The position numbers and the translations under genes were made by a program. Below, piece after piece: positions 23,211 through 62,775 of a stretch of 64,000 nucleotides of DNA. Within the stretch, counting starts at the first letter, position 1. Every line of letters starts with the position of its first letter. The DNA comes from Clostridiales bacterium (GTDB lineage Bacteria; Bacillota; Clostridia; Christensenellales; Borkfalkiaceae). Under the pieces are notes generated by a model. That model was given only the letters and a program-made list of their open reading frames with translations. It was not told where the DNA came from and made no database searches. The DNA lies in assembly GCA_015055965.1 (NCBI GenBank), contig SVHG01000006.1, forward strand, positions 57,234 through 121,233, written 5' to 3'.

Positions 23211-23215
23211 TTATA

Positions 23216-29301: not shown

Positions 29302-29595
29302 TTATTCACCTTTGAAGGGAAGTAATGCAACGATTCTTGCTCTTTTAACAGCTTCTGCAAGCATTCTTTGGTGCTTAGCGCATACGCCGGTCATACGTCT
29401 GGGGAGCATTTTACCCTTTTCGGTAACGTATTTTCTTAATTTGCCAACTTCTTTATAATCAATAGAGGTTGCTTTTTCAACACAGAATTGGCAAACTTTT
29501 TTCTTGTTTACTCTTTTGAAAGGCTTTTTTGCAGATGCTACGGGAGCAGAAGCTTCGGTAGCAGGAGCAGCCGTGTTTACGGTGTTTTCTTCCAT
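29302..29595 (-). CDS. rpsR: 30S ribosomal protein S18
   Basis: 97 aa. [63 protein letters not shown] is a canonical S18 core. The N-terminal extension is Ala-rich. Confidence 0.95.
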
Positions 29596-29741
29596 TTTTA
29601 TTTCTCCTTATGATATTCTTTGTTTTCGCGTTTACGCGATTTTTTTACGCTTTTTAAGCGCCGTGTTTTGCTTTTTTAGAGCATAAAATGCCTACCCCGC
29701 CCTTTTTACGCGAGGTAATAGGCTTAATGAAGGTTTGTTAA

Positions 29742-30158: not shown

Positions 30159-30206
30159 CTTTATTCCTCTGTTGTTTTTTCTTGTTTAATAACCTTTAGC
30201 TAATTA

Positions 30207-30491
30207 TTAAGCTCTTTTGGTTACCATTTGTCTTAACATACCTTCGGTGATGCCTGCAACACGGGTGATTTCCGCGATAACGCTGGTTTCACATTCGAAC
30301 GTCATAAGAACGTAGTAGCCTTCGGTTTGGTAGTTGATAGCGTAAGCGAGCTTCTTAACACCCCACTTATCAATACCTTCAACCTTTCCGCCTGCTTCAG
30401 TTACGATTCCTTCAAACTTAGCAATAATTGCATCCCTAGCTTCGTCTTCAAGCTTGGTTGAAAGAATGTAAAGCATTTCGTACTTCGTCAT
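30207..30491 (-). CDS. rpsF: 30S ribosomal protein S6
   Basis: 94 aa. MTKYEMLYILSTKLEDEARDAIIAKFEGIVTEAGGKVEGIDKWGVKKLAYAINYQTEGYYVLMTFE. Confidence 0.95.
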   Translation of the reverse strand: MTKYEMLYILSTKLEDEARDAIIAKFEGIVTEAGGKVEGIDKWGVKKLAYAINYQTEGYYVLMTFECETSVIAEITRVAGITEGMLRQMVTKRA

Positions 30492-30704: not shown

Positions 30705-33700
30705 TTAGGGAAGAACGGGAGCGCTATCAATTAGACCGAATACGATATCGAAGAAGTCAGCCATTGTGATTTGTTCCCAAGTCTTCTTTTCGCTATCAGC
30801 TTTACCGAAGTTATAAAGTTCAGTAATCTTAGCCTTTCTAGCGTCGGTTAAATCAGTTTCTTTTACTATGCCGATTTGAACTAATACGTCAAGTGATGCA
30901 TCCTTAGATAGCTTCTTTTCAAACTCAGTTGAAAGTGAGGTTAAGGTTAACGCGTTGTATTCAGCTTCAGTAAATACCTTGAATACGTCACAGTCGTCGT
31001 ATCCAATGAAGGTGCTTAACTTAACGTCAGTCTTAATCTTAGCACGTAAGTCGGTGCTAAAGTCAGCATCTAAGTCCTTAATCTTGTAATCAACAAGTAT
31101 CTTAACGATATCGTCGGTTACTTCTTCGCCAGCATCGTATAAGCCGTCCGCATCAGTATCGGTGTACCAAGTGCCCGTTAACTGATCTTTCTTGTAGCCC
31201 ATTACTTCACCAATGTATAGCTCGTCGATTGCACTGCTTAACTGGCCAATCTTCTTGTCTTCAAGTAGTTCAAGTAGAGATCCGTCGGTTACTTCAATTA
31301 CGTCGCCTAAAGTGAATTCATTAACAATGCCACCAAAGTCATTCTTAACCTCGCTTAAGGTGTAATCGCAAAGCTTACCAAGTAGTCCGGTTACAAGAGT
31401 AGTACCGTCATACCAGCCGTCTGCGCCTTCGGTGTATCTGAAGATGTCACCAATCTTAAGCGCTTCAACCTTATCCATGATAGTACCGATTCCGTCGCCG
31501 TGGGTAATATCCTTAACAAGTATTCCGGCAAGAGCGTTAGTTAATTTATCAGCAGGCTTAGCTAGGTCAACGATTAAGAATGCATATCCGTTTTCATCAA
31601 GAACTACTTCGTTTAATCCGTCCTTAGTCTTGAAGCTGTAATATACGTCTTCGCTACCACTGTATGAAACTCTTGCTAAGTGCATTAGCTCGCCAAGAGT
31701 GATTTCTTCAACCACGCTGATTATATCTAACGTTCCTTCTATTAGCTCGTGAGCGTCAAGAGAAGAAATACGTTGTGTTAATGTATCAACTTGAGTATAT
31801 GCGTTAATTACGCCTACACCCTCTACGTAAACGTCTTGCTTGCTGAACCATACGCAAGATGCATCGTGAACGTGACCGTCTACTAGGTTGCCTTCACAGG
31901 TGTAGCCAAGTAGCTCGCCCATATAGAAGCCGTCCATTAATGCGTCGTAATCGATATTCTTATTGATTACGTTAGCAAGCTTCATTTCGTAAATAACTTG
32001 TTTTACGTGATCCTTGATGCCGTAACCAAATTCTATCTTTTCGCCCTTGTTGGTCCAAACCTTATTAACTTCGTCGTATACGTTATAACCGTCTAATAGC
32101 TCGCCAACACGCATATCGCCAAGAACAGCGGTTAATAAGTATTCCTTACCTTGAGCCTTAGTATTGATTATGAAGTCGTATGCGCTTATGTTACATACGG
32201 TTGCAATTAGTTTAGCGTAAGCTTCGGTTGATAGCCACTTACCGGTTGCTTCATCATAAATTGCATTGTAAGTAGCAACTTGACCGGCTTTTTCTGCGCG
32301 ATTGTTAAGAGCTATTAACGCTTCGCCAACGATATCACCCATCGTTAAGTGGCTAATTGCATCAATTACTAATAACTTAATTCCGCCTAAACCGCCGTCG
32401 ATAGCAGCCTTAACGTCACCAACCGTGTAGTTTAGAGTTACTTCAAGTAGTTTTTCGAATGAACCTTCGAAATCCCACTTTCCGTTTTCTAGCTTAGTTG
32501 AGGTAATGTTTACACCTAACTGATCAGCTAAGGGGTGAACGCCTGACTGTAATCTGCCAAGCATATCAGCAAATACGATATCGCCTACTCTTAATTGTTC
32601 AACTAGGCTTAATGCGTATCCCTTTAGGTCATCCTTGTTATCAAGAATATCCTTTAAGCTTACGTTTAGAATAATATCCATTACGCTAACCATGCTGTTT
32701 ACCATAGTCCACTCTTCGTATGACTTCTTGGTTAAGGGTGCTTCGCCGGGTAGGATACCTTCTGCCTTAGCTTGGATATCGCTAGTTACGGTTAACAAGT
32801 TACCAAGAGTTACGTGAGTGAATATCTTATTACCAAAATCGTAACCGGTAGCTACTAAATCAATAGCTCTTTCATTAAATACTTCGTTCATTAAGCTATT
32901 AACGATGCCATCTCTTGAGTAAATACCGTCGTTTACAGTGTAACCTAAGTTATCAGCAAGAACGTCGCCTACGGTTGCATCAGCTACTACCTTGTTAACA
33001 AGACTTACTAATAGGTCGTTTGCTGCGAAGTATAGAACTGCGCCAACACCTACGCCAGCCGCGATTGCGAAAGGTCTGTAGTTTTCGGGTGTTGCTGCCC
33101 AAACGTCTGCTGCGTTGAATTTAATTGAACCAAGAGTTCCGCTTAGACCTGCGTGAAGTAGACTGTATACGAAATCAATCATGCTATGAGCAAAGATTTC
33201 ATCAGTAACAGAGTGTACTGCAGTAATTACTCTATCTACGTCAAGACCTAAAGTTCCAGCCTTAATATTTCTGAAGTTAATATCTTGATATAGGTTGATA
33301 AGCTCTGCGAATACTGCGTCTATTATTCTATGTTGTACCACGTGATCTAAGGTATTCCATACGTCGATTATAATATCAGATACCTTGCTGTCACCGTTTA
33401 AGGTTATACCGTTTAGAGGACCGGTAATTAAGCTGTTTGTTAATCTTACTATATCTCTTACTAAGCACTCGTCTAGGCTGGGAAGAGCGGTTACAACTAC
33501 GTTTGCAGTTGAATCTAGTAGATCGTTTACGTTAATTGCTAACGTGCCTTCTAATACTCTACCAATGATTACGCCTTCGTATAGACGGCCAAGCTCAGTA
33601 AATACGCTATCTATAACGTCGTGTCTTACGATATGGTCTAAGATTGCCTTACCGTTGATTAACGCGTCGGTTATTAGCTGTTCAGCGTGGAGATATACGT

Positions 33701-36700
33701 CTCTTAATTCGCCACCAATGCCGAATTTTGCAATTCTTGCAATATCGGTAACGAAGCATTCGTGTCCTACAAAGGCAATTGCTACCTCTGCAAGATAATC
33801 TACAACGTCATCAAATTCAAGACCTAAAGTACCTTCTACGATTTCATACTTAATATGAGTATCGCCGTATAGCTCAATTAGTCCTTCAATTACAACGTCT
33901 GCCTTTTGGCTAGGTCTGTACTTAGTTACTACAGCGTCTACCATGCCAAGAACGTTTTCTACGCTCATCTTATGATAGTATGCAGCCTTGAAGTCAAATC
34001 CAAGAGTTAACGCGTCTGCTACCTTCGTTCTGAAGATTGCGCTTGCTAATTCATTTTCTTCGCCTTCGAATAAGTAAGTTCCGATTTCGTATCCTAAGCG
34101 GTGCGCTAAGAAGTCGCCAAGTAATGCGTCTTCACCAAGTACGCGTTTAACAATCTTAACTAGTAAGGGGTTAGCTAATACGTACATATGAGCGCCAACG
34201 TCTACAGCTGCGATTATTGCTAAAGGTCTTAGATCTTCAGGAACTGCCGCCCATGCTGCTGATACGTTGAATACGATTGAACGTAACTGACCGTCCATGC
34301 CTTCGTGCGCTACGTTGAAGATAGCTTCAATAACGTCGTGAGTTATGAATAGTTTAGTTATATTGTGTACAGTAGTAATTACGTCGTCTACGTATAGGTC
34401 AAGTAAATCTTCCTTAACGTTTCCTACGTATACCTCTGCAAGTAGGGTTGAAAGCTCGTCGATTGCTGCTGCAAATCTGGTTGACTTAATATAGTCGGTA
34501 GCGATTGCCTTTGCAAGCTGTAAGGTTACGCCTACGCTTGCGTTTGCTTCAAGAGCAATATGAGCTAAGTTGCCTGCTAATACGTAAGTTAATAACGCTG
34601 CGCTTTCGTTAATTAATTCTACGTGTGCGCTTAACGCGTTGATGCTTACAAGTACCCTTGCAGCTGCGCCGATTACGTCGTCAACTAAGAAGGCGGGGAT
34701 TACGTTAATTACGTTAGCCGCAATAGTTTCACCGTATAAGCCCTTAACCTCTTCGCAGAATACGTTAACCGTTTCGCTTTCACGATAGAATGCGGTAAAT
34801 ACTGCGTTTGCGTCGTCTACTAGGTCTTTAACTAGTGCTTGTCCGTCTAATCTAATAGCTCTTAACTCGCCTGCTAGTACGCCTTCTAATAGATTTGCAA
34901 CTGAAATTATCTTAGCTTCGTGTGCAGCAATTGCATCTATGCTTGCTACTATTCTTCCGGCTGCGCCGATTACGTCGTCAACTAAGAAGCCGGGGATTAC
35001 GTTAATTACGTTAGCCGCAATAGTTTCACCGTATAGTGCCTTTGCTTCATCACAAATTAAGTTTGCAGTTAAGCTTTCGCCTACGAATGCGGTGTAAATA
35101 GCGTTTGCATCGTCGATTAAGTCTTTAACCAGTACGCTGCCGTCTAATCTAATAGTTCTTAATTCGCCGTCTAATGCGTCTACTAATAAGTCTTCAATTG
35201 CTACTATCTTAGCTTCGTGTGCCTTTAATGCTTCTACACTTGCTACTACGTTTGCAATTGAGTTAATTACGTCGTCTACCTTGAAGCCAAGTATTGCATT
35301 GAAGATATCCTTAGTTAAGGTTTCGCCGTATAATTTAGCAATTTCTACAAACATTGCTTCAATAGTATCACTTTCTGTGAAGTGACGTACTACTTCGTAC
35401 GTTTCATTTACTAAATCTGCTACCTTTTGTGTTCCGTCCATTCTAGTTTCGGGAAGCTTGCCTTCTACTATAATTTCCAGAACGTCTGCTATATCACTTA
35501 TTAATTCTGCTTGTTCTGATAGTATTACGCCCGTTACGTTTGCTACTGATCTGATTACTTCATCAATTTCAATTGCTAACGTGCCTTCTACTATACCAAG
35601 TACGGTTACGCCGTCGTATAACTTATTAATTTCATTGAAGATTGCTTCGCTTGCGTCGCTAATGTAATAGTTGCCGATAATTGCTTCTACTAATCTTGCA
35701 GTTTCGCTTACCTTTGCTTTTTCTTCAAATACGGGAGCGGTAATAGTTTCAGCTACTAAGTATTGTACTAACGCTGCGCTATCACTAATGATTCCTTCGT
35801 GTGCCTTTAACGCTTCTACGGCTACAAGTACGTTTACAATTGAGTTAATTGCATCGTCAACTTCAATTGCTAACGTGCCTTCTACGAAGGTATTTACGGT
35901 TACGCCTTCGTATAGCTTAGTTAGCTCTGCAAATACTGCTTTAACTATTGCATTTTCGCCAACCATATGGTCTACGATTGCCTTAACGTTAGCTAAAGCT
36001 ACGGAAATTTGTTGTTCGCCGTGATATCCTACGTTAGCTAGCTCGTTACCAATTGAATCGGTTAGAAGCTGAGCAATATCTCTTACTAAGCATTCGTTTT
36101 CTACGCCAACGATTGCTACTACTACGTCTGCTAAGTAATTAATTACGTCGTCTATTTCAAGCGCTAGGGTTGTTTCTACGATTTCGTCTACGATATGAGT
36201 TTGACCGTAAAGCTCAATTAAGCCTTCTATAGCGGCATCTGCAATTTCGTTTGCTGCGTACTTAGTTACAACCGCATCTGCTATTCCAAGAATATTTTCA
36301 ACGGTTAGTAATTCATAGTATGCTGCCTTGAAGTCATAGCCAAGAGTTAAAGCATCTGCTACCTTAGTGTTGAAGATTGCGCTTGCTAACGCATTTTCTT
36401 CGCCTTCAAATAGGTAGGTTTCAGCTTCGTATCCTAGAGGCTCTGCTATATAATCGCCAAGAATTGCATCTTCGCCAAGTGCCATCTTAGCAAGCTCTAC
36501 TAACGCGGGGTTAGCTAGTACGTACATATGAACTAGTACGTCTGCAAGAGCAATTACTACGATAGGTCTTAAATCTTCAGGAATTGCTTCCCAAGCAGCT
36601 AACGCGTTAAAGGTTAGGTTGCCTAAAGCACCGTCTAATCCTTCGTGAGCTACGTTGAAGATTACGTCTACTATATCGTTTTCTACGAATACGTTTACTA

Positions 36701-57700: not shown

Positions 57701-60700
57701 CGTCTAAGGTGTAAGAATCAAAGGTGATTTCTACGTTTTCTATTCTACCGCCCAGAATTTCGTGAAGAATCTCTTCTAATTCTTCTAAAGCATCACCAAG
57801 CTCTGAATCGCCGTAAAGCTCGTCTACCTTATTAGCAATATTGAATAGCGAGTCAATAACTTTGTCTACGAAAAGCTTCTTAGTGGTTTCAACGAAATCT
57901 TCAAGCTCTGAATCGCCGTATAAACTGGTAAATTCATCTAAAACGGTATCAATAAGCTCGGTTGCGTCGCCTAAAGCGTCTGCAACGATTTCGGTGTTAA
58001 TAATATCCTTTAAGTCGCCTATTAATTTGTCTAGGGCAAGAGCTTCATTAACGTCAAGCTCAACCATCTTACTACCTGTAAATAAATCGGTAAGAAGCTG
58101 TTCAACGGCGTCAATAAGCTCGTGTGCCTTGGCGGGTTCGTCTTCGTAATCGTACCAAGCCTTGGCAACTACCGCTAAGCTTGCGATTACGTTATCCATT
58201 TCAAATTCTTTTATGTAATCAAGAGCTTCATTAACAAGCTTTTCTTCGCCGAATAGATTTCTTATTTCGGTTAAAGCGGCGTTAACGGTGTCTATAATTT
58301 GTTCGGTCAAATTCTTAGATACCAGTTCGGTATTAAAGATAGTTTGAACAACGTCTATAACCTCTGCAACCTTAACACCCTTGTTAACCTGGACGTTATT
58401 TAACGTTCCGTCAAACATTGCCTTTAGAACTACTTCTAATACTGCTAACGCTTCAATAATATCTTCGTTGCCATCTCTTAAGCCCATATCGTCTAAAACA
58501 AAGAAGGTAACGTTGAATATTGAGGTAATCGTTGCGTCAACGCCAAAATCGCCGATTGCGCTAAAGATGTTAGCGGCAATTTCTTCTGCTTTATAGTGAT
58601 TTTTAGCTTCTTCGCATATCTTTAGAAGAATACCGGTATCTACCCTACGGATAATAGCGGGGTTAACTAAAATTTCCTCTAAGTCTTCAATTAAGGTATG
58701 AACTAAAACTCTACCGTCTAAACGGATGCCAAGCTCGTAGCCTGCTTCTAAGCTACCTTCTAAAACAGTTCCTGCAAGCATATCGCAGGTAAGAGCTTCA
58801 ACTGAAGCAAGGAATGCTAAAAGATTTTTAGAATCTCTGTTTCCCTCCATTTCAGCAACGGCAAATTCTACGGTGTTAAAGAAGGCTTCAATAACCGCTT
58901 CAACCTGAGTTTCGGTAAGCTTATCGAAGATGTGTTTAGCAATAGTTTCTTCGCCGTAAATAGCCTTAATTTCGTCAAGCGCTTTAGCAACTATGTCACG
59001 GTTAATAAAGTCACCGGTTACGGCATCCCAATTTAAAATATCGGTAAATATTGCCTTAGTAACGGTATCTAATTTTGCAATAACTGCATCTAGCTTTACC
59101 CAAACGGAATTATTATTTAGAAGCTCCTTAACGTCCTCTATTAAGGTAGCAACTAAAACTCTGCCGTCTAAGGTGGGTTGTTCCTTTAAACCACCGCGAA
59201 GCATATCGCAAGCTATCTTTTCTAAATCGTTAATAAGCTTTTCTTTATCGGAAGAAGAGTTATCGGTAAGTCTTAAAGCAAAGGTAGTAAGGTCTGCTAC
59301 AATGCTTACGTAAACGTCTATTTCCTTAGTTAGTAGCTTTTCGCCACCGTTTAATAAGTCTTGAACGATTAGTAAAACGGAGGTATTTAAAAGCTCGGTA
59401 GTACCGCTTTCGGTATTTCCGTCCCAAACGAATAAATCGCCGTCGTCCTCAAATTCGCTGTAGTCCATATCTAAAACGATAAGAACTAGTTGGAGTAAAT
59501 CGCCCACTCTAATATCCATGATTTCAGGATAGGTATCAACGGGTGAATCTTCATTTAAAACGGTTTCTAAAACGTCTGCAATCTTAAGGTTTAGTAAGTT
59601 AGACCAAGAGTCGGAAAGAGGTCTTTCACTTACGCCTTCCTTATAGTATTCGTTGGTAACTTCGTTATATTCAAAGCCAAGAGCCATGCAGAATATATCG
59701 CCAACGGTAAGGGTGGGGAATAAATCTCTAAATATTTCTTCAGGCGCAACGTCGCCTTCTACGAATGAAAGTGCAAGGTCAAATATATTATTAAATGAGA
59801 AGTCTAAAACTAGAGTTAAGTATTCGTTGTCACAAATCCAAGCGCCGGTTTCAGCGTCCTTTTCGTAACCTAGAATATCGCCTAAAGAAACGTTACCGAG
59901 GGCATTTCTGAACGCTTCAACGATTTCATCAATACTTTCTGCAGAATATTCGTCTAAAATTAAATCTGCAACGCATAAATCGAACAAGCCGTCCACTAAG
60001 GGGTTGTTCGTCTTTTCAAGATTAAATAATTCACCTAAGGTAGTTTCGCCAAGCTCTTCCTTTAAGCTATCCTTTAAAGCAGAAAGGAAAAGCGCGCCGT
60101 CAAACTCTTCGCCTTGGCCGGCAAGAAGCTTACCAACGTTAAGTCCGCCTAAAACTTGTAAAATTACGCTATCTTCGGTACTTAAACCAACGGCTTCAAA
60201 TACGTACGCAAGATCTACGTCACCGAATAGGGATTGGATTTTAACTAGAATAGCATCGTCACTTAATAAAGTTCCAATATCCATTCCTGCAATAACCTGT
60301 AGCATATCGCTAGCAGGCTCGCCGTCCTTTTCCCAAATACCGTTGCCGTCTTCATCCGTTAAGCCTAAGATATAGCCAACCTTAACGTTTGATAAAACGC
60401 CAAGAACAGCAAGCGTGTTAAAGCTATAACCGCCCTCTTCGGTGGGAACGATTAAATCAGCTAACGTTGCGCCGTTTAAGAACTTTAAGAATGAGCCGTA
60501 TTCAGAAGAAATGCTGTTTCCGCTACCGTCTACGGTATCCAATAAATCGTAAAGGATATCCTCTAAAGGCATTTTAGCGATAGAAGAAAGTGAGCCCTCC
60601 ATAAGCTCTGCCATAACGTCGTCTGCGAAATTCTTACTGTTGAATAAAACGGAAATAACCTCAAGTGAAACGTTACCCAATAATCTGATTATGGGAAGAG

Positions 60701-61367
60701 CTTGAGCCTTTTCGCTTTCTTCGTTAAGCACGTATGTATATTCGTGTAATACGGGATCGTAAACGGAGGTAAAGTATCCGGGTAAGAAAGCGCCTAGCTT
60801 TAAGGGCTTAATCGCTCTGATAAGACCTAAAGCGTCAACTCCTTCACCTTCTTTAGTAATAAGCTCTAATAGGGTGTAATCGCCCAATCTTTCCTGAGCT
60901 TCCCTTGAAAGGATCATGTCAAGATCCTTACCTCCGAACACGGCGGGAAGGAAGTTGTAAAGAGCCCTTACTCTAATGCTGCCTAAAAGCGCGTCAAATC
61001 CGTCCGATATATTGAAAAGAGAAATACCAAGTAAGGCTTCCCAATTTTCACCTTCGGTATCAACGTTTTCTACGCCTAAACCTGCAAGCAGTTTTTCAAG
61101 GTCTAATCCATATTCGCCCTGTAAGCGGTCAAGCGTGTAAGCATTAGGATCTTCCAATGCCTTCGTTAACAGCATTACCAGGTCTTCTATGGACTGGTCA
61201 CGAAGGTCATTCAAGCCGTCGTCAGGCTTGCTAACCATCGATAGGGGTTTGAGGTTTTTATAAGACCAAAATAGGCCGCCAACTATAGAGCCGACTACGG
61301 CCGCAATGGTAAAAACCACACCGAGTACAAATGCCAGTACTCTTCTTAAAAAGCTTCTCATCAACAT
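30705..61367 (-). CDS. giant (10,220 aa) acidic repeat protein with an N-terminal membrane anchor; family unrecognised
   Basis: An uninterrupted 30,663-nt frame. An AAGGAG RBS precedes ATG 61367. The N-terminus MLMRSFLRRVLAFVLGVVFTIAAVVGSIVGGLFW looks like a signal-anchor. The centre is built from ~96-100-aa units with the recurring pattern VVDAVFAELI.LYEGV.L..IVEGTLAIEIDDVI.SVA.VL.VA.PE.E..V.DIAKLL.DL..G.L....Y.G.QLV.VVLADVKAIVD. By eye it is rich in V/A/D/E/L/I, poor in R/W/C, and D+E clearly outnumber K+R. Confidence 0.9.
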   Translation of the reverse strand: MLMRSFLRRVLAFVLGVVFTIAAVVGSIVGGLFWSYKNLKPLSMVSKPDDGLNDLRDQSIEDLVMLLTKALEDPNAYTLDRLQGEYGLDLEKLLAGLGVENVDTEGENWEALLGISLFNISDGFDALLGSIRVRALYNFLPAVFGGKDLDMILSREAQERLGDYTLLELITKEGEGVDALGLIRAIKPLKLGAFLPGYFTSVYDPVLHEYTYVLNEESEKAQALPIIRLLGNVSLEVISVLFNSKNFADDVMAELMEGSLSSIAKMPLEDILYDLLDTVDGSGNSISSEYGSFLKFLNGATLADLIVPTEEGGYSFNTLAVLGVLSNVKVGYILGLTDEDGNGIWEKDGEPASDMLQVIAGMDIGTLLSDDAILVKIQSLFGDVDLAYVFEAVGLSTEDSVILQVLGGLNVGKLLAGQGEEFDGALFLSALKDSLKEELGETTLGELFNLEKTNNPLVDGLFDLCVADLILDEYSAESIDEIVEAFRNALGNVSLGDILGYEKDAETGAWICDNEYLTLVLDFSFNNIFDLALSFVEGDVAPEEIFRDLFPTLTVGDIFCMALGFEYNEVTNEYYKEGVSERPLSDSWSNLLNLKIADVLETVLNEDSPVDTYPEIMDIRVGDLLQLVLIVLDMDYSEFEDDGDLFVWDGNTESGTTELLNTSVLLIVQDLLNGGEKLLTKEIDVYVSIVADLTTFALRLTDNSSSDKEKLINDLEKIACDMLRGGLKEQPTLDGRVLVATLIEDVKELLNNNSVWVKLDAVIAKLDTVTKAIFTDILNWDAVTGDFINRDIVAKALDEIKAIYGEETIAKHIFDKLTETQVEAVIEAFFNTVEFAVAEMEGNRDSKNLLAFLASVEALTCDMLAGTVLEGSLEAGYELGIRLDGRVLVHTLIEDLEEILVNPAIIRRVDTGILLKICEEAKNHYKAEEIAANIFSAIGDFGVDATITSIFNVTFFVLDDMGLRDGNEDIIEALAVLEVVLKAMFDGTLNNVQVNKGVKVAEVIDVVQTIFNTELVSKNLTEQIIDTVNAALTEIRNLFGEEKLVNEALDYIKEFEMDNVIASLAVVAKAWYDYEDEPAKAHELIDAVEQLLTDLFTGSKMVELDVNEALALDKLIGDLKDIINTEIVADALGDATELIDTVLDEFTSLYGDSELEDFVETTKKLFVDKVIDSLFNIANKVDELYGDSELGDALEELEEILHEILGGRIENVEITFDSYTLDELINDVQEVINALPFEVLDDTYANPIIDRIEEFLKGIPVDEAVEGIQEKTVSELVEAVGDIVDILTDGEYEDLVDALEDLASDLFYGELGDVIFNDLITLDEIVEHAQNILNEAVDVDPAVNEIIDVVQELLEDITLSELEEGITDIKIHDLVDTASEIVNIATEDEYADAVEEIADLVKEFVDGTIGNPEFNYEDATIGDILESVAVIVDELGVDEDGTVTEILDIVADLLGDIELGNIEEGLSDLEISDIVDSVVDIVNVVTDDEYADLLEEVTDLVDLVVGGSIGDPELVYEETTIGEIIDEVMDIVDVLELDEDGTVTEIAGIVADLLGDVELGNIEEGLSDLEISDIVDSVVDIVNVVTDDEYADLLEEVTDLVDLVVGGSISDPELVYEETTIGEIINEVIDIVDVLELDEDGTVTEIAGIVADLLGDVELGNIEEGLSDLEISDIVDSVVDIVNVVTDDEYSDLLEEVTDLVDLVVGGSVGDPELVYEETTIGEIINEVIDIVDVLELDEDGTVTEIAGIVADLLGDVELGNIEEGLSDLEISDIVNSVVDIVNVVTDDEYAEILDAVSNIVDLVVDGSISDPELVYEDATIGEILENVAVIIDELGVDQDVVDVVEEVADLLEDVTIGNIEEDILELDVDEIIDVVNSITDLFVDDSEILDEIYEVAHEAFEGTLNDLTVDGEVIWDAIPEEYQPYVIAAGAVLGGVLYFVANDTLVEAVAQILGEDALVGDYLAEPLGFTEDTYLFEGKENALASAIFRTKVVDIVNDDFDFEAAYYDLLTVENILGIADAALTKHLGDERVDVVIDGLVELYGQTHVVDEIVEATLNLELDSVIDYVAEVANAFITNEQYQEIITEAAELVKMVFGGRLNFIGYHGDELVANVIDAVADLVLAIIGEEYEEMIGKVAALAKDTFGGTLNAPEFFKDCTVAQLLADIKAIVDEYVEDNELVDAIFAELTALYGDVLVVDIAKGTLNLDIDAVIRMLANVLAVAIKDEATLIHEIADVLVVMHAGTLETAHLDGYQLVRDLVLETYDIINYIIKDRASATVNEVVAVAFEEIAALYGDTLTKDIFKAIPEFDIDAVITSLANVILATGIEEVELVVELEALLKDMLHGTLGKPELSGYVKVASLILSTKAIINLYFTNVTLNTALDQLVILYGDTLSKDIFKAIPEFDVNDVIAAIANVAESVDAIKKYSVFINDIEDVLVIMLEGTLRTVRLDGSQKVADLVNETYDIVTHFTFGDTPRIIFEEIANMYGDTLTKDIFKAIPGFLVDDLIDSAARILVSIARLEKYEDKINAVAVTLKDMLDGTLRTIRLDGSVPVCELIDDANLLSDAFFYDSETLNVFFEEVKGLYGDTIAKHIFTAIPDFLVDDVINSIANVVASVKAIRKHSDKINAVAVTLKDMLDGTLRTIRLDGSVPVSELIDDANLLSDVFFYDSETLNLFFEEVKGLYGDTIAKNIFTAIPDFLVDDVINSIANVVASVKAIRKHSDKINAVAVTLKDMLDGTLRTIRLDGSVPVCELIDDANLLSDAFFYDSETLNVFFEEVKGLYGDTIAKHIFTAIPDFLVDDVINSIANVVASVKALKKDAVVVHEIADVLIIMLDGTLRTIRLDGSQLVADLVLATKEVATYFVKHEAVAVAFDELAAIYGDTITKDIFSVIPGFSIDDVVFAMAKVVVALVLPEDAELVNSIAGVITIMHEGALVEVRLDGHQKVADLVLATKDVVDHFVDNAAVLAIFDEIAKIYGETLTKDIFNVIPNFLIDDVITALANVAVVAFPEDVVVIAEIEALLKDMLKGTLANVSLNGVTKMAGLILRAKEILNYFVTIDAVNVGMEELAALYGDALSREFLSAIPDFPVAQVIRAMGNVGAAAVEDEKVAGIIKGVANVIAIMHRGTLADAHLNGNAKIADLILATYDVVKLITESEAMRVAFEELAGLYGDAVAMNVVDATLDFYVDSVIDSLAKVLASIKAIREHSDKINAVAATLEDVLDGTLRTIRLDGSVPVCELIDDADLLADAFFYDSETLNVFFEELKGLYGDTIAKNIFTAILDFDVNDVINSITNVLVSVKAIRDRSELVYDIAEVLEIMLEGTLGEVRLHGTRKMADLVMAAYDVVAHFTEEEFVKVIFEEIAGLYGDALTREFLTAIPDFDVNDVITATANVVESVDALKKHAVLVNDIEEVLEIILEGTLGEVRLHGTRKMADLVMAAYDVVAHFTEEEFVKVIFEEIAGLYGDALTREFLTAIPGFFIDDVVVAAANVINEIFPDEPVVDQAAKLVMDLLDGRLNAPGLQGQQLITVVIEDVKAILYNYYISDVSDVVFAELIKLYEGAMVKDAVQATLDLPVEEVISSVVNVVKVFLPEEVLVDQIAKLVDDLVDGTLGAPVFNGEQLITVVIEDVKAILYNYYISDVSDVVFAELIKLYEGAMVKDAVQATLDLPVEEVISSVVNVVKVFLPEEVLVDQIAKLVDDLVDGTLGAPVFNGEQLVPVVVEDVEAIIDTVAGEILLITDICKVLKDLYEGVTLANFASATLDLPVDNVINAVAYVVGYNLMDVDTIAKLLTDLLEGSISAPYVYMDQLVPVVVEDVEAILDLYVEDIQLITDICYVLKDLYQGVTLAEFASATLDLPIDNVIKAVSYVVGYNFIDIDDIEKLLTDLLDGTISAPIIDESALVTTILADVKVIVDKYVEDNKLIDVIFAELIKLYEGALVVNVVQETLDLPVEEVISSVVNVVKVFLPEEALVDQIAKLVDDLVDGTVSAPVFNGEQLVTVVLEDVEAIIGNYYVSEASEVVFDELIKLYEGVMVKDVVQATLDLPVEEVIASTVAIVKVFMPEEALVDQIAKLVDDLVDGTISAPVFNGEQLVSVVIEDTEAIIDTLAGEITLITDICYVLKDLYEGVTLNEFVQASYDLDVDEVISAIAYVVGYNFIDIDAIAKLLIDLLEGTVTNPVVDYKQLVPVVIEDVETLIDLYVGEIKLITDVCTALKDLYEGVTLEEFVKATLDLPVDDVIEAASYVVGRNIINIDDIEKLLTDLLDGTISAPIIDESVLVTTILADVEAIISKHYISDASEAVFAELNKLYEGALVVNVVQETLDLPVEEVISSVVNVVKVFLPEEALVDQIAKLVDDLVDGTLGAPVFNGEQLITVVLADVEAIIGNYYVSDASEVIFAELNKLYEGAMVKDVVQATLDLDVDEVIDSINNITNVFVTHEVLDTIYAVAHAGLYGTLGNLGFDPLAAYEELPAEVQPYVIAALATTVAVLYFAANDTLVDLVGQFLGEDAVLGDYIAEPMGYTKDTYLFEGEENALASAIFNTKLVDIANDDFDFEAAYYALLTVENILGIADAVVTKYAANEIADVAIEGLIELYGQTHIIDEIVEATLALELDDVVNYLADVASAIVGVENECLVRDIAMLLTDAFGNELANVGYHSGALISVLLADVKGILAHFVNNDVVNAIFVELITLYEDVTVATIVEGTLAIEFDALVNSIANVLAVAFPEDECVIRDVAKLLADLLGINLGELGYHGKQLVTVVLADVEEILSHYYISDASEVVFAELIKLYEGVTLEGIVEGTLAIEIDDVIASVVAVVNVFLPEEEALIADIADILVIMLDGALGELRLDGSQKVADLVNATYDVVYHFTESDTVLAIFREIAHMYGDTLTYQIFSAIPGFDFDESADSFARVVASIDALKPHADTVYAVATLVKDVLGGELRLIGIHGDQLVTVVLADVKAVVDSLDVENAVVDAVFNELIELYEGVTLNAVAEGTLAIAMDDLIASVADVVEVVLVGNEHNVQHVEELVKYLVAGTIGAPAFEESATVDGALGLVKTIVLDYAAFVEVEAVFNELAKLYEGVLVLDVVQATLDLPVDNVIDTLANIVNVFAVEQTATVNAVAQLAKDLVDGTVSAPLFNDVQLVTVVLADVKAIVDSFGVENAVVDAVFAELAKLYEAVTLGGIADGTLAIEIHDLVDAVANVLVVAFPEYESVIREASQLVADLVDGTIKAPLFNDTQYVAYVLADVKAILDNFVESAVVDAIFNELIALYDGVMLKDIADGTLAIEIHDLVDAVARVLIVAAPTAEILVTDSADLIKELVYGTIGEPIFNDLAYVTELLDIIYNVVENFVIHDAVTVAFEELNKLYEGVLLKDVVAHTTSLDFDALVYSVAAVVATAIPAEAKLVNDIAKLIADAFGTNLDRLGYHDDTYVSTLLRDVKAILDRFVVENAVVDTIFEELIALYEGVLVRDFVDYSLAIEMSKVISVEANVFAAALPEQEELIRDIEQLLVDLISGTVSAPLFNDVQLVPVVLTDVKAILDNFVDNAVVDAVFEELTVLYEGVALNAIVEGTKNLYVDDIINSVASVLAVAVPAQAELFEDIAKLLTDVFGVQIKTFGIHGNALVSTLIADVEAIVGNFVDNAVVDAVFAELIELYEGVELVAIADETLALEIDDVIDSVASVLAVALPENEETVNAVAQLAKDLVDGPVSAPVFNGEQLVTVVLADVEAIVDSFGVENAVVDAVFAELITLYDGVTLEGIVEGTLALNIDAVIAAGEGVAKAIFTEDQCLVSDIAKLLTDLFDGRVEKAGYNGEQSVSVILSDLKCIIKHIVGENAVLNAVISELSGLYGDSAINLIGKTTLGLEVDAVITSVANVLIVGLGEEEKINAFAALAKDVLGGKIEKIGYHGEQLITVILADVKAIVDSFGVENAIVDEAFAQVSGLYEGVIVDEFVNATVALDFDATVKAVASVLAVALPENAATVNAVAELVVDAVGGTVSKIGYNGNVLVSELIADVKAIVDSFGVENAIVDVVFEELIALYEGVILEKIAEGTLAIAMDDLIASVADVVEAVIPANAHNVQHVEELVKYVVAGTVGAPVLEETATVGEALLLAKDVVLDYAAFVEVDAVFNELAALFENVTIANIAEDVLELDVDDVIDTVNNITNVFVTNEVLDTIYAVAHAGLYGTLGNLGFDALAAYEEMPQTAQIVTIAALATTVAVLYFAANDTLVDLVGQFLGEDAVLGDYIAEPMGYTKDTYLFEGEENALASAIFNTKLVDIANDDFDFEAAYYALLTVENILGIADAVVTKYAANEIADVAIEGLIELYGQTHIIDEIVEATLALELDDVVNYLADVASAIVGVENGCIVRDSAKLLTDAFGNELANVGYHSGALISVLLADVKAIVDHLVAENAIVNAVFEELTALYDGVTVATIVEGTLAIEFDVLVNSIANVLVVAFPEDECVIRDVAKLLADAFGIDLGELGFHGEQLVPVLLADVEEILSHYYISDASEVIFAELIKLYEGVTVATIVEGTLAIEIDDVIASVAAVVNVFLPEEEALIADIADVLVIMLDGALGELRLDGSQKVADLVIATKEVVTYFVKYEAVAVAFDEIAAMYGDTLTYQIFSVIPGFDFDKSVDAIANVVASVDALKPHADTVYAAATLVKDVLGGELRLIGFHGDHEVGLILADVKAIVDSLDVENAIVDAVFAELIKLYEGVTLNAIVEGTLALNIDAVIAAGEGVAKTIFTEDQCLVSDIAKLLTDLFDGRVEKAGYNGEQSVSLILSDLKYIIQHLVGENAVLNAVISELSGLYGDSAINLIGETTLGLEVDAVITSVANVLIAGLGEEEKINAFAALAKDVLGGKIEKIGYHGEQLITVILADVKAIVDSFGVENAVVNEAFAQVSGLYEGVIVDEFVNATVALDFDATVKAVASVLAVALPENAATVNAVAELVVDAVGGTVSKIGYNGNVLVSELIADVEAIVDSFGVENAVVDAVFAELIELYEGVILEKIAEGTLAITMDDLIASVADVVEAGIPANAHNVQHVEELVKYLVAGTIGAPAFEESATVDGALGLVKTIVLDYAAFVEVETIFNELAKLYEGVLVLDVVQATVDLPVDNVIDTLANIVNAFAVEQTATVNAVAQLAKDLVDGTVSAPLFNDVQLVTVVLADVKAIVDSFGVENAVVDAVFAELIGLYEGVVLNAIVEGTLAIEIHDLVDSTARVLGVAIPTAEILVNDVAALVKELVFGTISEPVFNDLALVTDLLAITRKIVENFVINDVVSVAFEELAKLYEGVLLKDVVAHTTSLDFDALVYSVAAVVATAIPAEAKLVNDIAKLIADAFGTNLNRLGYHDDAYVSTLLEDVEAIVGNFVQDNAVVDAVFEELIGLYEGVLVRDIVDYSLAIAMDDLTGSVADVLEAVIPGHEAKVQHSEELVKYLVTGSIGAPALDEAATVGGALDLVKEIVSDYVESEELEAVFDELSALFAEVVIVNIGEDTLALDIDDVIDTVNNITNVFVTNEVLDTIYAVAHAGLYGTLGNLGFDPLAAFETMPQAAQIVTVVVLATTVGVLYVAANDTLVDLVGQLLGEDAVIGDYLAEPLGYTKDTYLFEGEENALASAVFNTKLVDIANDDFDFEAAYYALLTVENILGIADAVVTKYAANEIADVAIEGLIELYGQTHIIDEIVEATLALEIDDVTNYLADVAVAIVGEENECIVRDIAKLLTDAIGGTIKELGYHGEQSVSGLIVDVKAIVDHLVAENAIVNAVFEELIGLYDGVTLITIVEGTLSIQLADVINSIANVVVVALGEENECIVRDVAKLINDVIGGELRLIGYHGDKEVAVVIADVKAIVDHFVDNGVVTAVFAELTELYDGVTLNAIVEGTLAITMDDLIASVADVVEVALVGNEHKVQHVEELAKYLVAGTITAPVFEESATVSGTLDLAKLIAMDYLAYVEVDAVFNELSKLYDGVLLLDIVNGTLGLTLDNVIDTVASIVKIFVAGNEASVVALADEEPVTGNAAIVDAFATLAKDLVDGTIAEPVFVLEQLVSVVLVDVKAIVDSFGVENDVVDVAFAEVIELYDGVTLIGIAEGTLAIVMDDLIRSVESVVVTAFNELEANAKHVGDLLTYLVAGKIGSIGFESQATVGKTLELVKAIVSDYVESEQLEAVFDELSTLFAEVYIVTIGQDTLALDVDVTLDTAHNIVNVFVENDIVDVIFNVAHEGLDGALGNLTFNALAAWEAIPEDLRPIVVIALADVLVHMYVLANPALVELAKMALGEDAILGDYIAEPLGYEAETYLFEGEENALASAIFNTKVADALTLGYDFKAAYYELLTVENILGIADAVVTKYAANEIADAAIEGLIELYGQTHIVDEIVETTLALEIDDVINYLADVVVAIVGVENECLVRDIAQLLTDSIGNELANVGYHGEQQISVALANVKAIVDHMVGENAIVKAVFAELTKLYEGVTVNTFVEGTLAIEVDDAINSIVNVLVAVEALKAHEGIISDSAALVQYLVAETITAPVFEEKAKVSETARLVEAIIGNYYISDASEAIFNEINKLYDGVTVLGIVEGTLAIEIDEVIRSVANVTGVILSEQAELISDIADVLEIIVEGKLPETRMDGTQKVADLVNETYEVVRHFTESDTIEAMFVEIAKLYGETLTKDIFNAILGFKVDDVINSIANVVASVEALKAHEAKIVAIEDLLVDALDGELRTIRLDGSVLVKDLIDDANAIYTAFVGESLTANLICDEAKALYGETIAANVINVIPGFLVDDVIGAAGRIVASIDAIAAHEAKIISVANLLEGVLAGELRAIRLDGQALVKDLVDDANAVFTAFYRESETVNVFCEEVKGLYGETIAANVINVIPAFLVDDVIGAAARVLVSINALSAHVELINESAALLTYVLAGNLAHIALEANASVGVTLQLAKAIATDYIKSTRFAAAIDELSTLLAEVYVGNVKEDLLDLYVDDVITTVHNITKLFITHDVIEAIFNVAHEGMDGQLRSIVFNVSAAWAAVPEDLRPLAIIAAVDVGAHMYVLANPLLVKIVKRVLGEDALLGDFLAHRLGYEIGTYLFEGEENELASAIFRTKVADALTLGFDFKAAYYHKMSVENVLGMVDAVVTKYRPSQKADVVIEGLIELYGDTHIKYEIVEGTLGLEFDDVVDYLAEVAIAFVGHECFVTDIARIAKFGIGGELRDVYLHAEQLITDALINGKAILDHIVRHDVIDSVFTELGRLYEGVIIGRVLEGTLAINVNDLLDSTANVVVTALPSLDECLVRDIVRLTNSLITGPLNGITLNGDSKVSDIIIDVWNTLDHVVQHRIIDAVFAELINLYQDINFRNIKAGTLGLDVDRVITAVHSVTDEIFAHSMIDFVYSLLHAGLSGTLGSIKFNAADVWAATPENYRPFAIAAGVGVGAVLYFAANDLLVSLVNKVVADATVGDVLADNLGYTVNDGIYSRDGIVNSLMNEVFNERAIDLVATGYDFGNKIFTHVTLGNLLTVTSDIQAKAEGILPGEAPLTKKSYEEWTMVNSMVSVMDIILNVSLKDILDNKDDLKGYALSLVEQLRVGDIVFADMLGRLQSGVHPLADQLGVNITSTKLENGKWDFEGSFEKLLEVTLNYTVGDVKAAIDGGLGGIKLLVIDAISHLTMGDIVGEALIALNNRAEKAGQVATYNAIYDEATGKWLSTEAYAKLIATVCNISAYDFIINTKAQGKEYLLTAVLGDMRVGELLDGYNVYDEVNKVWTNKGEKIEFGYGIKDHVKQVIYEMKLANVINKNIDYDALMDGFYMGELLGYTCEGNLVDGHVHDASCVWFSKQDVYVEGVGVINAYTQVDTLTQRISSLDAHELIEGTLDIISVVEEITLGELMHLARVSYSGSEDVYYSFKTKDGLNEVVLDENGYAFLIVDLAKPADKLTNALAGILVKDITHGDGIGTIMDKVEALKIGDIFRYTEGADGWYDGTTLVTGLLGKLCDYTLSEVKNDFGGIVNEFTLGDVIEVTDGSLLELLEDKKIGQLSSAIDELYIGEVMGYKKDQLTGTWYTDTDADGLYDAGEEVTDDIVKILVDYKIKDLDADFSTDLRAKIKTDVKLSTFIGYDDCDVFKVFTEAEYNALTLTSLSTEFEKKLSKDASLDVLVQIGIVKETDLTDARKAKITELYNFGKADSEKKTWEQITMADFFDIVFGLIDSAPVLP
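38061..38811 (-). repeat. dispersed repeat (punctuation module, copy 4), slightly more diverged
   Basis: Encodes ...DTYLFEGEENALASAVFNTKLVDIANDDFDFEAAYYALLTVENILGIADAVVTKYAANEIADVAIEGLIELYGQTHIIDEIVEATLALEIDDV.... Confidence 0.75.
40150..41160 (-). repeat. dispersed ~1-kb near-identical repeat, copy B
   Basis: See 43051-44061. Confidence 0.8.
42120..42870 (-). repeat. dispersed ~750-nt near-identical repeat (punctuation module, copy 3)
   Basis: See 47331-48081. It also aligns with 38061-38811 at an offset of 4,059 nt. Confidence 0.8.
43051..44061 (-). repeat. dispersed ~1-kb near-identical repeat, copy A
   Basis: Aligns with 40150-41160 at an offset of 2,901 nt. The antisense track ORFs at 43327 and 40426 begin with the same 61 aa, and those at 43717 and 40816 are near-identical. 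Confidence 0.8.
47331..48081 (-). repeat. dispersed ~750-nt near-identical repeat (punctuation module, copy 2)
   Basis: Aligns with 42120-42870 at a constant offset of 5,211 nt (1,737 codons). Example: GCCAACGATTGCTGATGCTACGTCTGCTAAGTAATTAACTACGTCGTCTAATTCTAAAGC occurs in both. Confidence 0.8.
50230..50810 (-). repeat. 2 tandem near-identical 288-nt units inside the giant ORF
   Basis: The protein segment ITVVIEDVKAILYNYYISDVSDVVFAELIKLYEGAMVKDAVQATLDLPVEEVISSVVNVVKVFLPEEVLVDQIAKLVDDLVDGTLGAPVFNGEQL occurs twice without change. Confidence 0.8.
50930..51420 (-). repeat. 2 tandem near-identical 294-nt units inside the giant ORF
   Basis: The string GTTAATGCGTCGCCGTATAAGCCTGCGATTTCTTCAAAGATTAC... 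occurs at 50941 and at 51235. The protein segment HGTRKMADLVMAAYDVVAHFTEEEFVKVIFEEIAGLYGDALTREFLTAIP occurs twice. Confidence 0.8.
52920..53830 (-). repeat. 3 tandem near-identical 297-nt (99-aa) units inside the giant ORF
   Basis: The unit AIPDFLVDDVINSIANVVASVKAIRKHSDKINAVAVTLKDMLDGTLRTIRLDGSVPVCELIDDANLLSDAFFYDSETLNVFFEEVKGLYGDTIAKHIFT occurs three times. The antisense ORFs at 53128 and 53722 are 594 nt (2 x 297) apart. Confidence 0.85.
55900..57150 (-). repeat. about 4 tandem near-identical 300-nt (100-aa) units inside the giant ORF
   Basis: The protein unit ELDEDGTVTEIAGIVADLLGDVELGNIEEGLSDLEISDIVDSVVDIVNVVTDDEYADLLEEVTDLVDLVVGGSIGDPELVYEETTIGEIINEVIDIVDVL repeats with 1-3 substitutions. 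The antisense track ORFs at 55942, 56542 and 56842 recur at multiples of 300 nt. Confidence 0.85.
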
Positions 61368-61454
61368 GTTGTCATCTCCTTAGTGTTTTTGGCTGTTTTA
61401 CACCTCTTTTTTTAAAAAAGGGCATAATACGGCCTTTTCTAATGACTAAGTAAT

Positions 61455-61483
61455 ATTATAACATCACTAAGGGAAAGTGTCAA
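61455..61483 (-). promoter_or_regulatory. perfect consensus sigma-A promoter upstream of the giant ORF
   Basis: Minus strand: TTGACA (61483-61478), exactly 17 nt, TATAAT (61460-61455). It lies ~90 nt upstream of ATG 61367. Confidence 0.75.
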
Positions 61484-61905: not shown

Positions 61906-62775
61906 ATGATTGATTTTATTGTCAACGGTAAAGCCGGATACGCAAGATCTTGGCTAAAAACAAAAAGAAAAATAACCGAAATTTTGGAAAGTAAAGGGAT
62001 TGAATACCGCTTCCATTTTACGGAATACGCAAAGCATGCAACAAAAATCGCTAAAGATCTTTGCGAACAAGGCGCTACTGATATAGTCGCTATTGGCGGT
62101 GACGGAACGGTAAACGAGGTTCTTAACGGTTTAGCGGTAGAAAAGGTAAACTTCGGCATTATTCCCCACGGTAGCGGAAACGACTTCGTAGATAGCGTAT
62201 CAATCCCCCACAAGGTTGCAGACGCCTTAAACGTTATTCTAAACGAAAGCCCCAAGCCCACCGACTTTTTGGTTTGTGACGGCGTTCGCGGTTTAAATAT
62301 TATAGGCACGGGAATAGACGTTGAAATTTTACAGCGTTGCGAAAATAATAAAATATTTAAAGGCAAACTAAAATATTTCATTTCGCTAATAATAAGTCTT
62401 ATTAAATTTAGATTTTACGATTTTAAATTAAAGAAAGAAGATGGCTACCACGATAAAAGCGCCATGATTATTTGTTGCTGTAACGGAAGGAACTTTGGCG
62501 GTGGAATCCCAATTTGCCCCATTGCCGTTGCAGACGATAACAAAATGGAGTTTATTTTGGTTAACAAAATGAATAAGGCTAAAATGGTTGGCTACTTAAT
62601 TAAGCTTATGCAGGGCAAGCTTTTAGAGCAAACCTTTTGCGAGCACGTAACCCAAGACGAGGTTGAGGCCATTTTTGATCACCCCGTAACCATAGAAATA
62701 GACGGCGAGCTTTATAACGACTTAAAGTTTGATATACATATTGAAAAGGGCGCTTTAAAGCTTTACAGACCTTAA
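61906..62775 (+). CDS. diacylglycerol/lipid kinase family protein (YegS/DagK/BmrU type)
   Basis: 289 aa. Motifs: IVNGKAG, VAIGGDGTVNEVLNGL and GIIPHGSGNDF. A TTGCTT-17-TATAAT promoter lies at ~61,835-61,865. Confidence 0.85.
   Translation: MIDFIVNGKAGYARSWLKTKRKITEILESKGIEYRFHFTEYAKHATKIAKDLCEQGATDIVAIGGDGTVNEVLNGLAVEKVNFGIIPHGSGNDFVDSVSIPHKVADALNVILNESPKPTDFLVCDGVRGLNIIGTGIDVEILQRCENNKIFKGKLKYFISLIISLIKFRFYDFKLKKEDGYHDKSAMIICCCNGRNFGGGIPICPIAVADDNKMEFILVNKMNKAKMVGYLIKLMQGKLLEQTFCEHVTQDEVEAIFDHPVTIEIDGELYNDLKFDIHIEKGALKLYRP

Follow-up and report, generated by a model that had tools for sequence, protein, structure and literature searches.

What kind of protein is encoded by an open reading frame (ORF) that fills almost half of a 64,000-nucleotide stretch of a gut bacterial genome, and is such a frame a functional gene at all? 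The question is raised by positions 57,234 to 121,233 of contig SVHG01000006.1 (assembly GCA_015055965.1, a Clostridiales bacterium of the Borkfalkiaceae), hereafter the window, whose minus strand carries an uninterrupted frame for 10,220 amino acids (aa). We find that this giant gene is genuine and that it is both conserved and subject to selection in a limited set of gut Clostridia (Christensenellaceae/"Borkfalkiaceae"); its product contains a family of tandem repeats that is undescribed as far as the tools applied can see. We estimate a probability of roughly one half that the protein is an N-terminally anchored, exported, polyanionic rod displaying a conserved C-terminal domain, similar in its working to the staphylococcal giant Ebh and outside the Ebh family.

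The frame opens with ATG, contains only its terminal stop codon and takes up 30,663 of the 64,000 bases (47.9%). At the base composition of the window a stop is expected every ~14 codons, and the chance of 10,220 open codons is ~1e-322. The protein is rich in V (13.5%), L (11.9%), A (10.9%), D (9.5%), E (8.7%) and I (8.5%), low in R (1.3%), W (0.2%), C (0.3%) and P (1.5%), and has a net charge of -1341. An earlier note on this DNA had described a single 30.66-kb ORF covering 47.9% of the window that chance could not have produced, with a good ribosome-binding site (RBS) and an acidic product rich in V, A, L, I, D and E. The ORF listing and the translation reproduce this frame and, together with the conservation reported below, uphold these claims; the low glycine content also claimed there did not hold, as Gly accounts for 6.3%. 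The gene and its expression signals are the following (nt, nucleotides; dN/dS, ratio of nonsynonymous to synonymous substitution rates; L and P numbers designate related loci and proteins).

30705..61367, minus strand: coding sequence of 10,220 aa plus stop codon, from ORF listing and translation; dN/dS 0.24-0.38 against L001 and L006.
61376..61381, minus strand: Shine-Dalgarno sequence AAGGAG, 8 nt upstream of the ATG.
61455..61483, minus strand: sigma-70-type promoter TTGACA-17 nt-TATAAT with extended TG, a 12/12 match whose -10 element ends 88 nt before the ATG.

A promoter with the same 12/12 match lies 81-88 nt before the start in the window, L001 and L005. The -35 and -10 elements, a leader segment and the RBS could be aligned and are conserved in five loci with N-terminal domains that are 47-73% identical, and the RBS-region sequence CAAGGAGAT is invariant across five orthologous loci. 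The 5' leader segment GTCATTAGAAAAGGCCGTATTATGCCCTTTTT (window 61384-61449, minus strand) is kept between species in an alignment with L001, L002, L003 and L005; its consensus fold is weakly supported (-5 kcal/mol, with a positive covariation term), and no structure is claimed. Rfam models matched nowhere in the window. According to the Nei-Gojobori method, dN/dS is 0.24 over 2,593 codons relative to L001, a 65%-identical species, and 0.27 and 0.38 relative to L006, a 93-97%-identical strain. The giant gene is also one of 26 out of 30 large ORFs on the minus strand, and the GC skew of the plus strand is negative throughout. Genes in Firmicutes are usually co-directional with replication, and we infer that the giant gene follows this rule on the G-rich, presumed leading strand.

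These substitution ratios, the conserved promoter, leader and RBS, and the strand placement render it highly improbable that the frame is an assembly artefact or a decaying pseudogene instead of a functional gene. The suspicion has some grounds, since the longest exact DNA repeat within the gene measures 454 nt (copies spaced 5.2 kb apart) and there are adjacent units 96-97% identical, both of which make the copy number error-prone, and since the gene is shattered into 1-3-kb contigs in metagenome-assembled genomes (MAGs) built from short reads. Because the repeats preserve the frame, copies lost or gained during assembly would leave the ORF open, and the exact number of units is therefore provisional. 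However, an artefact is hard to reconcile with the absence of any stop within 10,220 codons, with a median identity among units of merely 27%, or with intact orthologues of 3-6.4 thousand aa in many independent assemblies. Decay of the gene could be argued from a single orthologous species: L003 (5161-5166) and L004 (5330-5335), which derive from different samples and have an N-terminal domain 54% identical to that of the window, have the same in-frame TAA within a repeat unit, at codon 956 (context GCA TAA ATG TAC), after which the frame is open for >2,000 codons. Either the gene is split there into two coupled cistrons or the stop is a recent nonsense mutation.

Within the small, unnamed family of gut Christensenellaceae/"Borkfalkiaceae" to which it belongs, the window protein exceeds all other known members in length. 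Using full HMMER, we compared a profile of the repeat unit with 1.84 billion representative proteins. Only 64 of these matched at E<=1e-3, 46 passed a cut-off of E<=1e-10, and a single protein contained as many as 49 matching stretches; word-indexed searches recovered few relatives, mostly truncated proteins. The relatives derive from Candidatus Borkfalkiaceae, Christensenellaceae or Clostridia MAGs (NCBI places Borkfalkiaceae within Christensenellaceae), most of them on 1-3-kb contigs, and every public name seen for them is "hypothetical protein". The family is nearly invisible in public data because short-read MAGs fragment the gene into such hypothetical pieces. Retrieval yielded the genome of one GTDB species and three loci from metagenomes. 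Complete relatives have lengths of 6,360, 6,261 (seven sequence variants), 4,955, 4,530, 4,475 and 2,959 aa.

All complete relatives share one plan, consisting of a signal-anchor helix, an N-terminal domain (N-domain) of ~670 aa next to the membrane, a variable array of ~97-aa units and a conserved helix/hairpin C-terminal domain (C-domain) of ~700-900 aa. N-domain orthologues are 47-73% identical and C-domain homologues 27-97%. The number of unit matches varies more widely, from 91 in the window to 47, 46, 30, 22, 12 and 11 in the complete relatives, and within one strain cluster seven variants of exactly 6,261 aa stand beside one of 6,360 aa, a difference of one extra unit. Two distant relatives, L009 (2,420 aa) and P0087 (1,513 aa), retain the anchor and weakly similar terminal domains, the similarity of the C-terminal region being shown for L009, and contain no units. 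The persistence of anchor and termini without units indicates that the unit array behaves like an expandable spacer.

In the window protein the array is flanked by an N-domain of ~670 aa and a C-domain of ~700 aa, neither of which is built of units, and seven homologous hydrophobic modules of ~95 aa (H-modules, H1 to H7) interrupt it, starting at aa 1916, 4477, 6214, 7567, 8259, 9039 and 9423. From the N-terminus, the parts are arranged as follows.

61260..61340, minus strand: N-terminal membrane anchor, aa 10-36 (RRVLAFVLGVVFTIAAVVGSIVGGLFWSYKN), an uncharged hydrophobic stretch with Arg before it.
59256..61259, minus strand: N-domain, aa 37-704, without units; hGDhhGY-type helix/hairpin motifs at aa 495 and 555.
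33099..59255, minus strand: repeat body, aa 705-9423, in seven blocks, with 91 hidden Markov model (HMM) matches to the ~97-aa helical unit.
55338..55622, minus strand: H1, aa 1916-2010 (PYVIAAGAVLGGVLYFVANDTLV...LGEDALVGDYLAEPLGF...).
47655..47939, minus strand: H2, aa 4477-4571.
42444..42728, minus strand: H3, aa 6214-6308, with H4 the most hydrophobic internal segment.
38385..38669, minus strand: H4, aa 7567-7661, with H3 the most hydrophobic internal segment.
36309..36593, minus strand: H5, aa 8259-8353, with D and H within the hydrophobic stretch.
33966..34253, minus strand: H6, aa 9039-9134, with D and H within the hydrophobic stretch.
32811..33101, minus strand: H7, aa 9423-9519, which opens the C-terminal domain.
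30708..32810, minus strand: C-domain, aa 9520-10220, of helix-helix-beta-hairpin modules (hGDhhGY...G.W); the last ~110 aa are conserved.
31854..31898, minus strand: motif CEGNLVDGHVHDASC (C-x7-GHxH-x3-C) in the C-domain.

The repeat units form the bulk of the protein. With an iterated HMM, aa 705-9423 yield 91 matches, 74 of them complete, with a median unit-to-unit identity of 27% and a maximum of 97%. Autocorrelation peaks at 96-100, 193 and 967 aa, and Tandem Repeats Finder reports periods of 279-300 nt in the gene. The units fall into subtypes, and the blocks after H2, H3 and H4 open with the same subtype order, indicating segmental duplication; every block is acidic alike, with -8 to -23 net charge per 100 aa. 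Modelling three consecutive units with AlphaFold2 on an alignment of 52 paralogous triplets yielded one model with a mean predicted local distance difference test (pLDDT) score of 91.6 and a predicted template modelling (pTM) score of 0.70, and four others with pLDDT 59-70. In the best model each unit is predicted to be a small helical bundle of five helices with short beta bridges, and 71% of residues are helical overall.

Both termini contain a recurring element, an hGDhhGY motif followed by a G.W hairpin, which is found at aa 495 and 555 of the N-domain and at aa 9754, 9816 and 10052 of the C-domain. An AlphaFold model of the C-terminal 840 aa, based on an eight-sequence alignment, reached pLDDT 75 and pTM 0.41. 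In L006 (4492-8499, compared with window 30708-33227), a 97%-identical strain, the C-domain contains an extra segment of ~135 aa that duplicates roughly residues 557-692 of the 840-aa query, so the terminal helix/hairpin modules also vary by duplication. The C-x7-GHxH-x3-C motif is shared by the window protein, P0005, P0015, P0068 and P0069 and could possibly be a metal site or a disulfide. A DxDxDG-type 12-residue loop (DTDADGLYDAGE) followed by a helix, at aa 10070-10081 (window 31125-31160), resembles an EF-hand or dockerin loop; close relatives have it too, as do P0015/P0085, but it is not family-wide. Such EF-hand-like Ca2+ loops were considered as evidence and left unused, as there is one strict match (aa 10070) at a shuffle expectation of 0.25, unconserved across the family.

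Could this protein have diverged from an adhesin or repeat family already described, for example the FIVAR-GA proteins Ebh and Embp or the spectrin, Ig-like, cadherin or RTX proteins? Its size and all-helical rod design do recall Ebh, and two whole-sequence Pfam scores exceed their gathering cut-offs (TTRAP, 44.4 vs 27 bits; LepB_GAP_C, 35.9 vs 25 bits). However, neither these scores nor the other summed Pfam scores contain an individually significant stretch, and all were rejected because a biased repeat can add up many weak matches into one total. A Pfam scan of all 10,220 aa, run in three thirds at E<=0.1, contained no FIVAR, GA, spectrin, Big/Ig-like, cadherin, RTX, nonribosomal peptide synthetase (NRPS) or polyketide synthase (PKS) domain. 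NCBIfam models, run on the two termini, on three units and on a single H-module region, gave nothing real, and Pfam gave nothing on the homologues P0021, P0013 and P0015 or the L009 ORF. Profiles of the unit, C-domain and N-domain found no credible match among PDB sequences. In Foldseek, the best E values were ~1-2, with nothing below 1, both for the three-unit model (PDB and BFVD) and for that of the C-domain (PDB). A literature search for giant proteins in Christensenellaceae or Borkfalkia found no prior description of the family. Membership in a described family is thus scarcely credible, and the fold of the unit, judged from its model, is probably new. As an observation on annotation, the summed Pfam scores in window 51369-61367 and 41370-51368 illustrate a trap that long biased repeats set for automatic pipelines.

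With these results, most of the architecture sketched in the earlier note can be accepted. It had proposed an N-terminal signal-anchor-like helix, which corresponds to the uncharged hydrophobic aa 10-36 behind R4, R8 and R9, and ~90 tandem units of ~96-100 aa with helix-favouring sequences, which agrees with the 91 matches and the 71% helix of the three-unit model; the array is not the uniform one envisaged there, because the seven hydrophobic modules interrupt it. It had seen no C-terminal sorting signal, and the protein indeed ends in ...FGLIDSAPVLP, with no LPXTG-like motif (LP.[TSA]G) in a motif scan of the entire 10,220-aa protein. It had also noted no Ebh/FIVAR, Ig-like, cadherin, RTX, NRPS or PKS signatures, which Pfam and NCBIfam bear out, and had suggested that the repeat family may be undescribed, consistent with the absence of Pfam, NCBIfam, PDB-sequence and Foldseek matches and with only 64 carriers among 1.84e9 proteins.

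The earlier note had not recognised the H-modules, nor the helix/hairpin make-up of the two terminal domains, the synteny or the narrow taxonomic range. Each H-module contains an uncharged helix of 18 residues, rich in Gly, Ala, Val and Ile and ending in ...LYF.AN(D/P).LV, followed by the flank LGEDxxLGDYxAEPxGY...FEGEEN.LA, which takes the form LGxDxxhGxhhAExhGY in the family; from the resemblance of its motifs, the module looks like a hydrophobic helix fused to one module of the terminal-domain type. Complete relatives have 4, 4, 3, 3 and 2 of them, and the divergent 4,955-aa member has no H-module HMM match. We summed the Hessa biological hydrophobicity scale crudely over each segment and obtained -1.6 for the N-terminal anchor, +1.4 and +1.5 for H3 and H4, >4 for the other segments of the window, and -1.85 and -2.28 for some segments in relatives.

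Given such segments, the protein might be imagined as a giant multi-pass membrane protein with eight spans, separating blocks of 290-2,470 aa that lie inside and outside the cell in turn. The internal segments are transmembrane-like in length and hydrophobicity, and many predicted transmembrane helices in giant proteins of Omnitrophota provide a precedent (doi 10.1101/2023.11.21.568195). This topology is nevertheless very unlikely. The H-modules are homologous and share the flank LGEDxxLGDYxAEPxGY, which makes successive membrane spans improbable, as alternation would place the same module on opposite sides of the membrane. Likewise, H counts of 7, 4, 4, 3, 3, 2 and 0 combined with one conserved C-domain would require the side of this domain to flip, an argument from parity that is weakened because assembly may have collapsed near-identical H-to-H periods and so altered the counts; we therefore rely on the shared flanks instead. 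Odd and even blocks are alike in composition and charge, the flanks have no positive-inside signal, and charged or polar residues interrupt some of the helices (Asp and His in H5 and H6, Glu in L009). The H-modules would more probably be buried helices, helices that pack chain to chain, or one-sided membrane staples.

The last of these possibilities leads to a surface scaffold that would run along the membrane, pinned at eight points by the N-terminal helix and the seven H-helices; the latter could dip into the membrane one-sidedly or bundle with adjacent chains, giving a spectrin-like or exoskeleton-like mesh. Such a scaffold would account for seven homologous modules with 18-residue uncharged helices at intervals of 290-2,560 aa, whose segments rank among the most hydrophobic 0.1% of the 19-mers of the protein. 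H-modules recur across the family, and L009 has one H-like segment despite its lack of units. AlphaFold, moreover, leaves the hydrophobic segment of H7 as an unpacked helix of 34 residues with pLDDT <50. Yet the H-helices are not amphipathic, unlike usual in-plane anchors, their flanks lack positive charge, and the same Asp, His and Glu residues that speak against membrane spans are unfavourable here too; we regard the proposal as unlikely. A broader proposal, which we find doubtful, is that the protein represents a new kind of envelope scaffold, a polyanionic rod of ~10,000 residues pinned to the membrane, or zipped to adjacent chains, by periodic transmembrane-like staple helices, which would serve as exoskeleton or molecular ruler. 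In-frame gain and loss of repeats would then tune both its length and the number of staples, and its repeat fold would have no solved counterpart.

The protein begins with MLMRSFLRRVLAFVLG..., and its anchor is an uncharged 27-residue helix that follows three Arg (R4, R8, R9) and ends in an invariant W-x-Y-K. In an alignment of six sequences (A4) residues R8-G16, W34, Y36 and K37 are invariant, and homologues keep the pattern RRVLAFVLG...GGxxWxYK together with the N-domain. The Arg ahead of the anchor suggest an N-in/C-out orientation. Cys makes up 0.32% of the giant protein vs 1.74% in neighbouring genes, a 5-fold depletion. Low Lys/Arg content and strong acidity ease translocation when the membrane potential is positive outside. 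Export of the body is suggested by the N-side Arg, the invariant W-x-Y-K, the Cys depletion and the acidity with scarce Lys/Arg, and also by the BspA-type leucine-rich repeat (LRR) proteins of the window, which use the same style of anchor.

The reverse placement, a skeleton on the cytoplasmic face of the membrane with the bulk inside as a spectrin-like scaffold of helical repeats, is in our judgement rather improbable. The ~97-aa helical-bundle repeats do resemble spectrin-type rods in size and secondary structure, Pfam and motif scans found no wall-anchoring domain, the Cys/His motif of the C-domain fits a reducing compartment, and in L003 and L004 the part beyond the in-frame stop is open and has no signal sequence. 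These points are countered by the orientation favoured by the Arg, by the Cys depletion relative to neighbouring genes, by an acidity and Lys/Arg scarcity that favour export, and by the lack of any spectrin match in Pfam or fold searches; the stop in L003 and L004 may itself be merely a recent nonsense mutation.

We favour the exported, N-anchored rod. The fibre- or spacer-type envelope protein suggested in the earlier note draws indirect support from the anchor, the Cys depletion, the conserved termini and the variable unit count. Its N-terminal helix would insert N-in/C-out, and the very acidic, Lys/Arg-poor and Cys-poor chain would be exported via Sec. On the outer face of the membrane the units would fold into a long polyanionic rod or brush, which, at an estimated 2.5-3.5 nm per unit (from helices of 12-17 residues), might reach ~0.2-0.3 um when fully extended and would keep the C-domain away from the cell. 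Evolution would tune its length by in-frame gain or loss of units.

Several observations weigh against the exported rod. Only one in five AlphaFold models of the units is confident, and the alignment consists of paralogous repeats, making the packing between units uncertain; the C-domain model, from eight sequences, is moderate only. Some internal segments match the N-terminal anchor in hydrophobicity on the crude scale and could halt Sec transfer. Pfam and motif scans found no cell-wall-binding, sortase or S-layer module. Zinc binding in the cytoplasm would likewise be compatible with the C-x7-GHxH-x3-C motif, and the TAA-ATG that splits the gene in one orthologous species leaves a downstream part that is open yet lacks a signal sequence.

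The genomic setting of the gene is conserved among close relatives. L002-L006 keep the order of a divergent dagK-like gene, the giant gene and then rpsF-ssb-rpsR, and the syntenic loci include a 175-kb contig from a Hadza gut; in L005, gyrB and gyrA lie a few kb upstream. The order is not kept at the distant relative L009, and no conserved partner gene is evident across the loci. The two neighbours are listed here.

61906..62775, plus strand: divergent lipid-kinase-like gene with DAGK_cat and YegS_C domains, syntenic in all orthologous loci.
29302..30491, minus strand: rpsF-ssb-rpsR directly downstream, which has a promoter of its own (30676-30648) and is syntenic in L005 and L006.

The rpsF promoter (30648-30676, minus strand) is a near-perfect TTGACA-17-TATACT with extended TG and starts 29 nt past the stop of the giant gene. 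A scan found no terminator between the giant gene and rpsF, so that transcription of the 30.7-kb gene may continue into rpsF-ssb-rpsR.

Other genes of the window, all on the minus strand, are recorded as side observations. An IS256/Mutator-family transposase (27882-29057; Pfam E = 5e-108) is inserted just downstream of rpsR and separates the ribosomal operon from a VanZ-like gene (27053-27634). Three adjacent genes at 20344-26654 form a possible defence island, encoding a TIR_2-domain protein of 889 aa that also matches bSEFIR weakly, a 421-aa P-loop (KGGSGRTT) protein with a weak PDC-M28B match and a 716-aa protein without matches. A cluster that probably encodes surface proteins lies at 13757-17737, where two BspA-type LRR_5 proteins with N-terminal signal-anchor helices adjoin a protein of 608 aa that scores weakly for RHS-repeat and CBM_10.

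Christensenellaceae and their relatives inhabit ruminant guts, and to our knowledge their cell surface is essentially unstudied. They also rank with the most heritable and most health-associated bacteria of the human gut (PMC6819567). A gene of almost 31 kb with a conserved consensus promoter, directly upstream of rpsF-ssb-rpsR, represents a large cellular investment, and if its product is a surface rod, it probably dominates contact with mucus, host cells, phages and neighbouring bacteria. The unit array would be a natural, length-tunable helical rod, and as neither the unit nor the terminal modules have a counterpart in Pfam, NCBIfam or PDB, they offer new fold families for structural work. 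The product is plausibly one more giant, repetitive protein of the cell envelope, set apart by its new repeat family, a probably new fold and its periodic hydrophobic modules.

Among known systems, Ebh of Staphylococcus aureus and Embp of S. epidermidis are the closest functional analogues. They share with the window protein a size of ~10,000 aa, a Firmicute host, tens of all-helical units (~100-130 aa), an expected rod of hundreds of nm, attachment to the membrane and not by sortase, and a copy number that varies between strains. Unlike them, the window protein has no FIVAR or GA repeats in Pfam and no YSIRK signal peptide, is anchored at the N- and not the C-terminus (the C-terminal 700 aa contain no hydrophobic span), contains seven internal hydrophobic modules, is far more acidic and has a different architecture of terminal domains. 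Its unit model matches no PDB chain (best Foldseek E 2.1, no Ebh chain listed), and the unit profile found no Ebh match among PDB sequences. With every testable defining feature absent, the protein lies outside the Ebh/Embp family. Spectrin-repeat rods of the eukaryotic membrane skeleton are likewise elongated, membrane-associated and built of tandem ~100-aa helical bundles, but their ~106-aa repeat has three long helices, whereas the unit is predicted to have five short helices with beta bridges; there is no spectrin match in Pfam or in fold searches, and the location here is probably extracytoplasmic.

Giant proteins have also been reported from metagenomes. Those of West-Roberts et al. 2023, from Omnitrophota and gut Clostridia, carry SecA_DEAD, dockerin, RCC1, beta-propeller, LRR or fibronectin domains (doi 10.1101/2023.11.21.568195), none of which, nor any peptidase domain, was found by Pfam in the whole window protein; similarities lie in their origin as metagenome-derived ORFs, some from the mammalian gut, and in their transmembrane-like segments. 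Giant1-5 of Apilactobacillus kunkeei are surface proteins of 3,000-8,000 aa (PMC12863079). The N-terminal beta-solenoid given there for Giant1-4, akin to serine-rich-repeat adhesins, is undetected in the window protein. These proteins resemble the window protein in being very large, lineage-restricted, elongated and extracellular (in our case, by the reading favoured here), in belonging to a host-associated Firmicute and in evolving by intragenic recombination.

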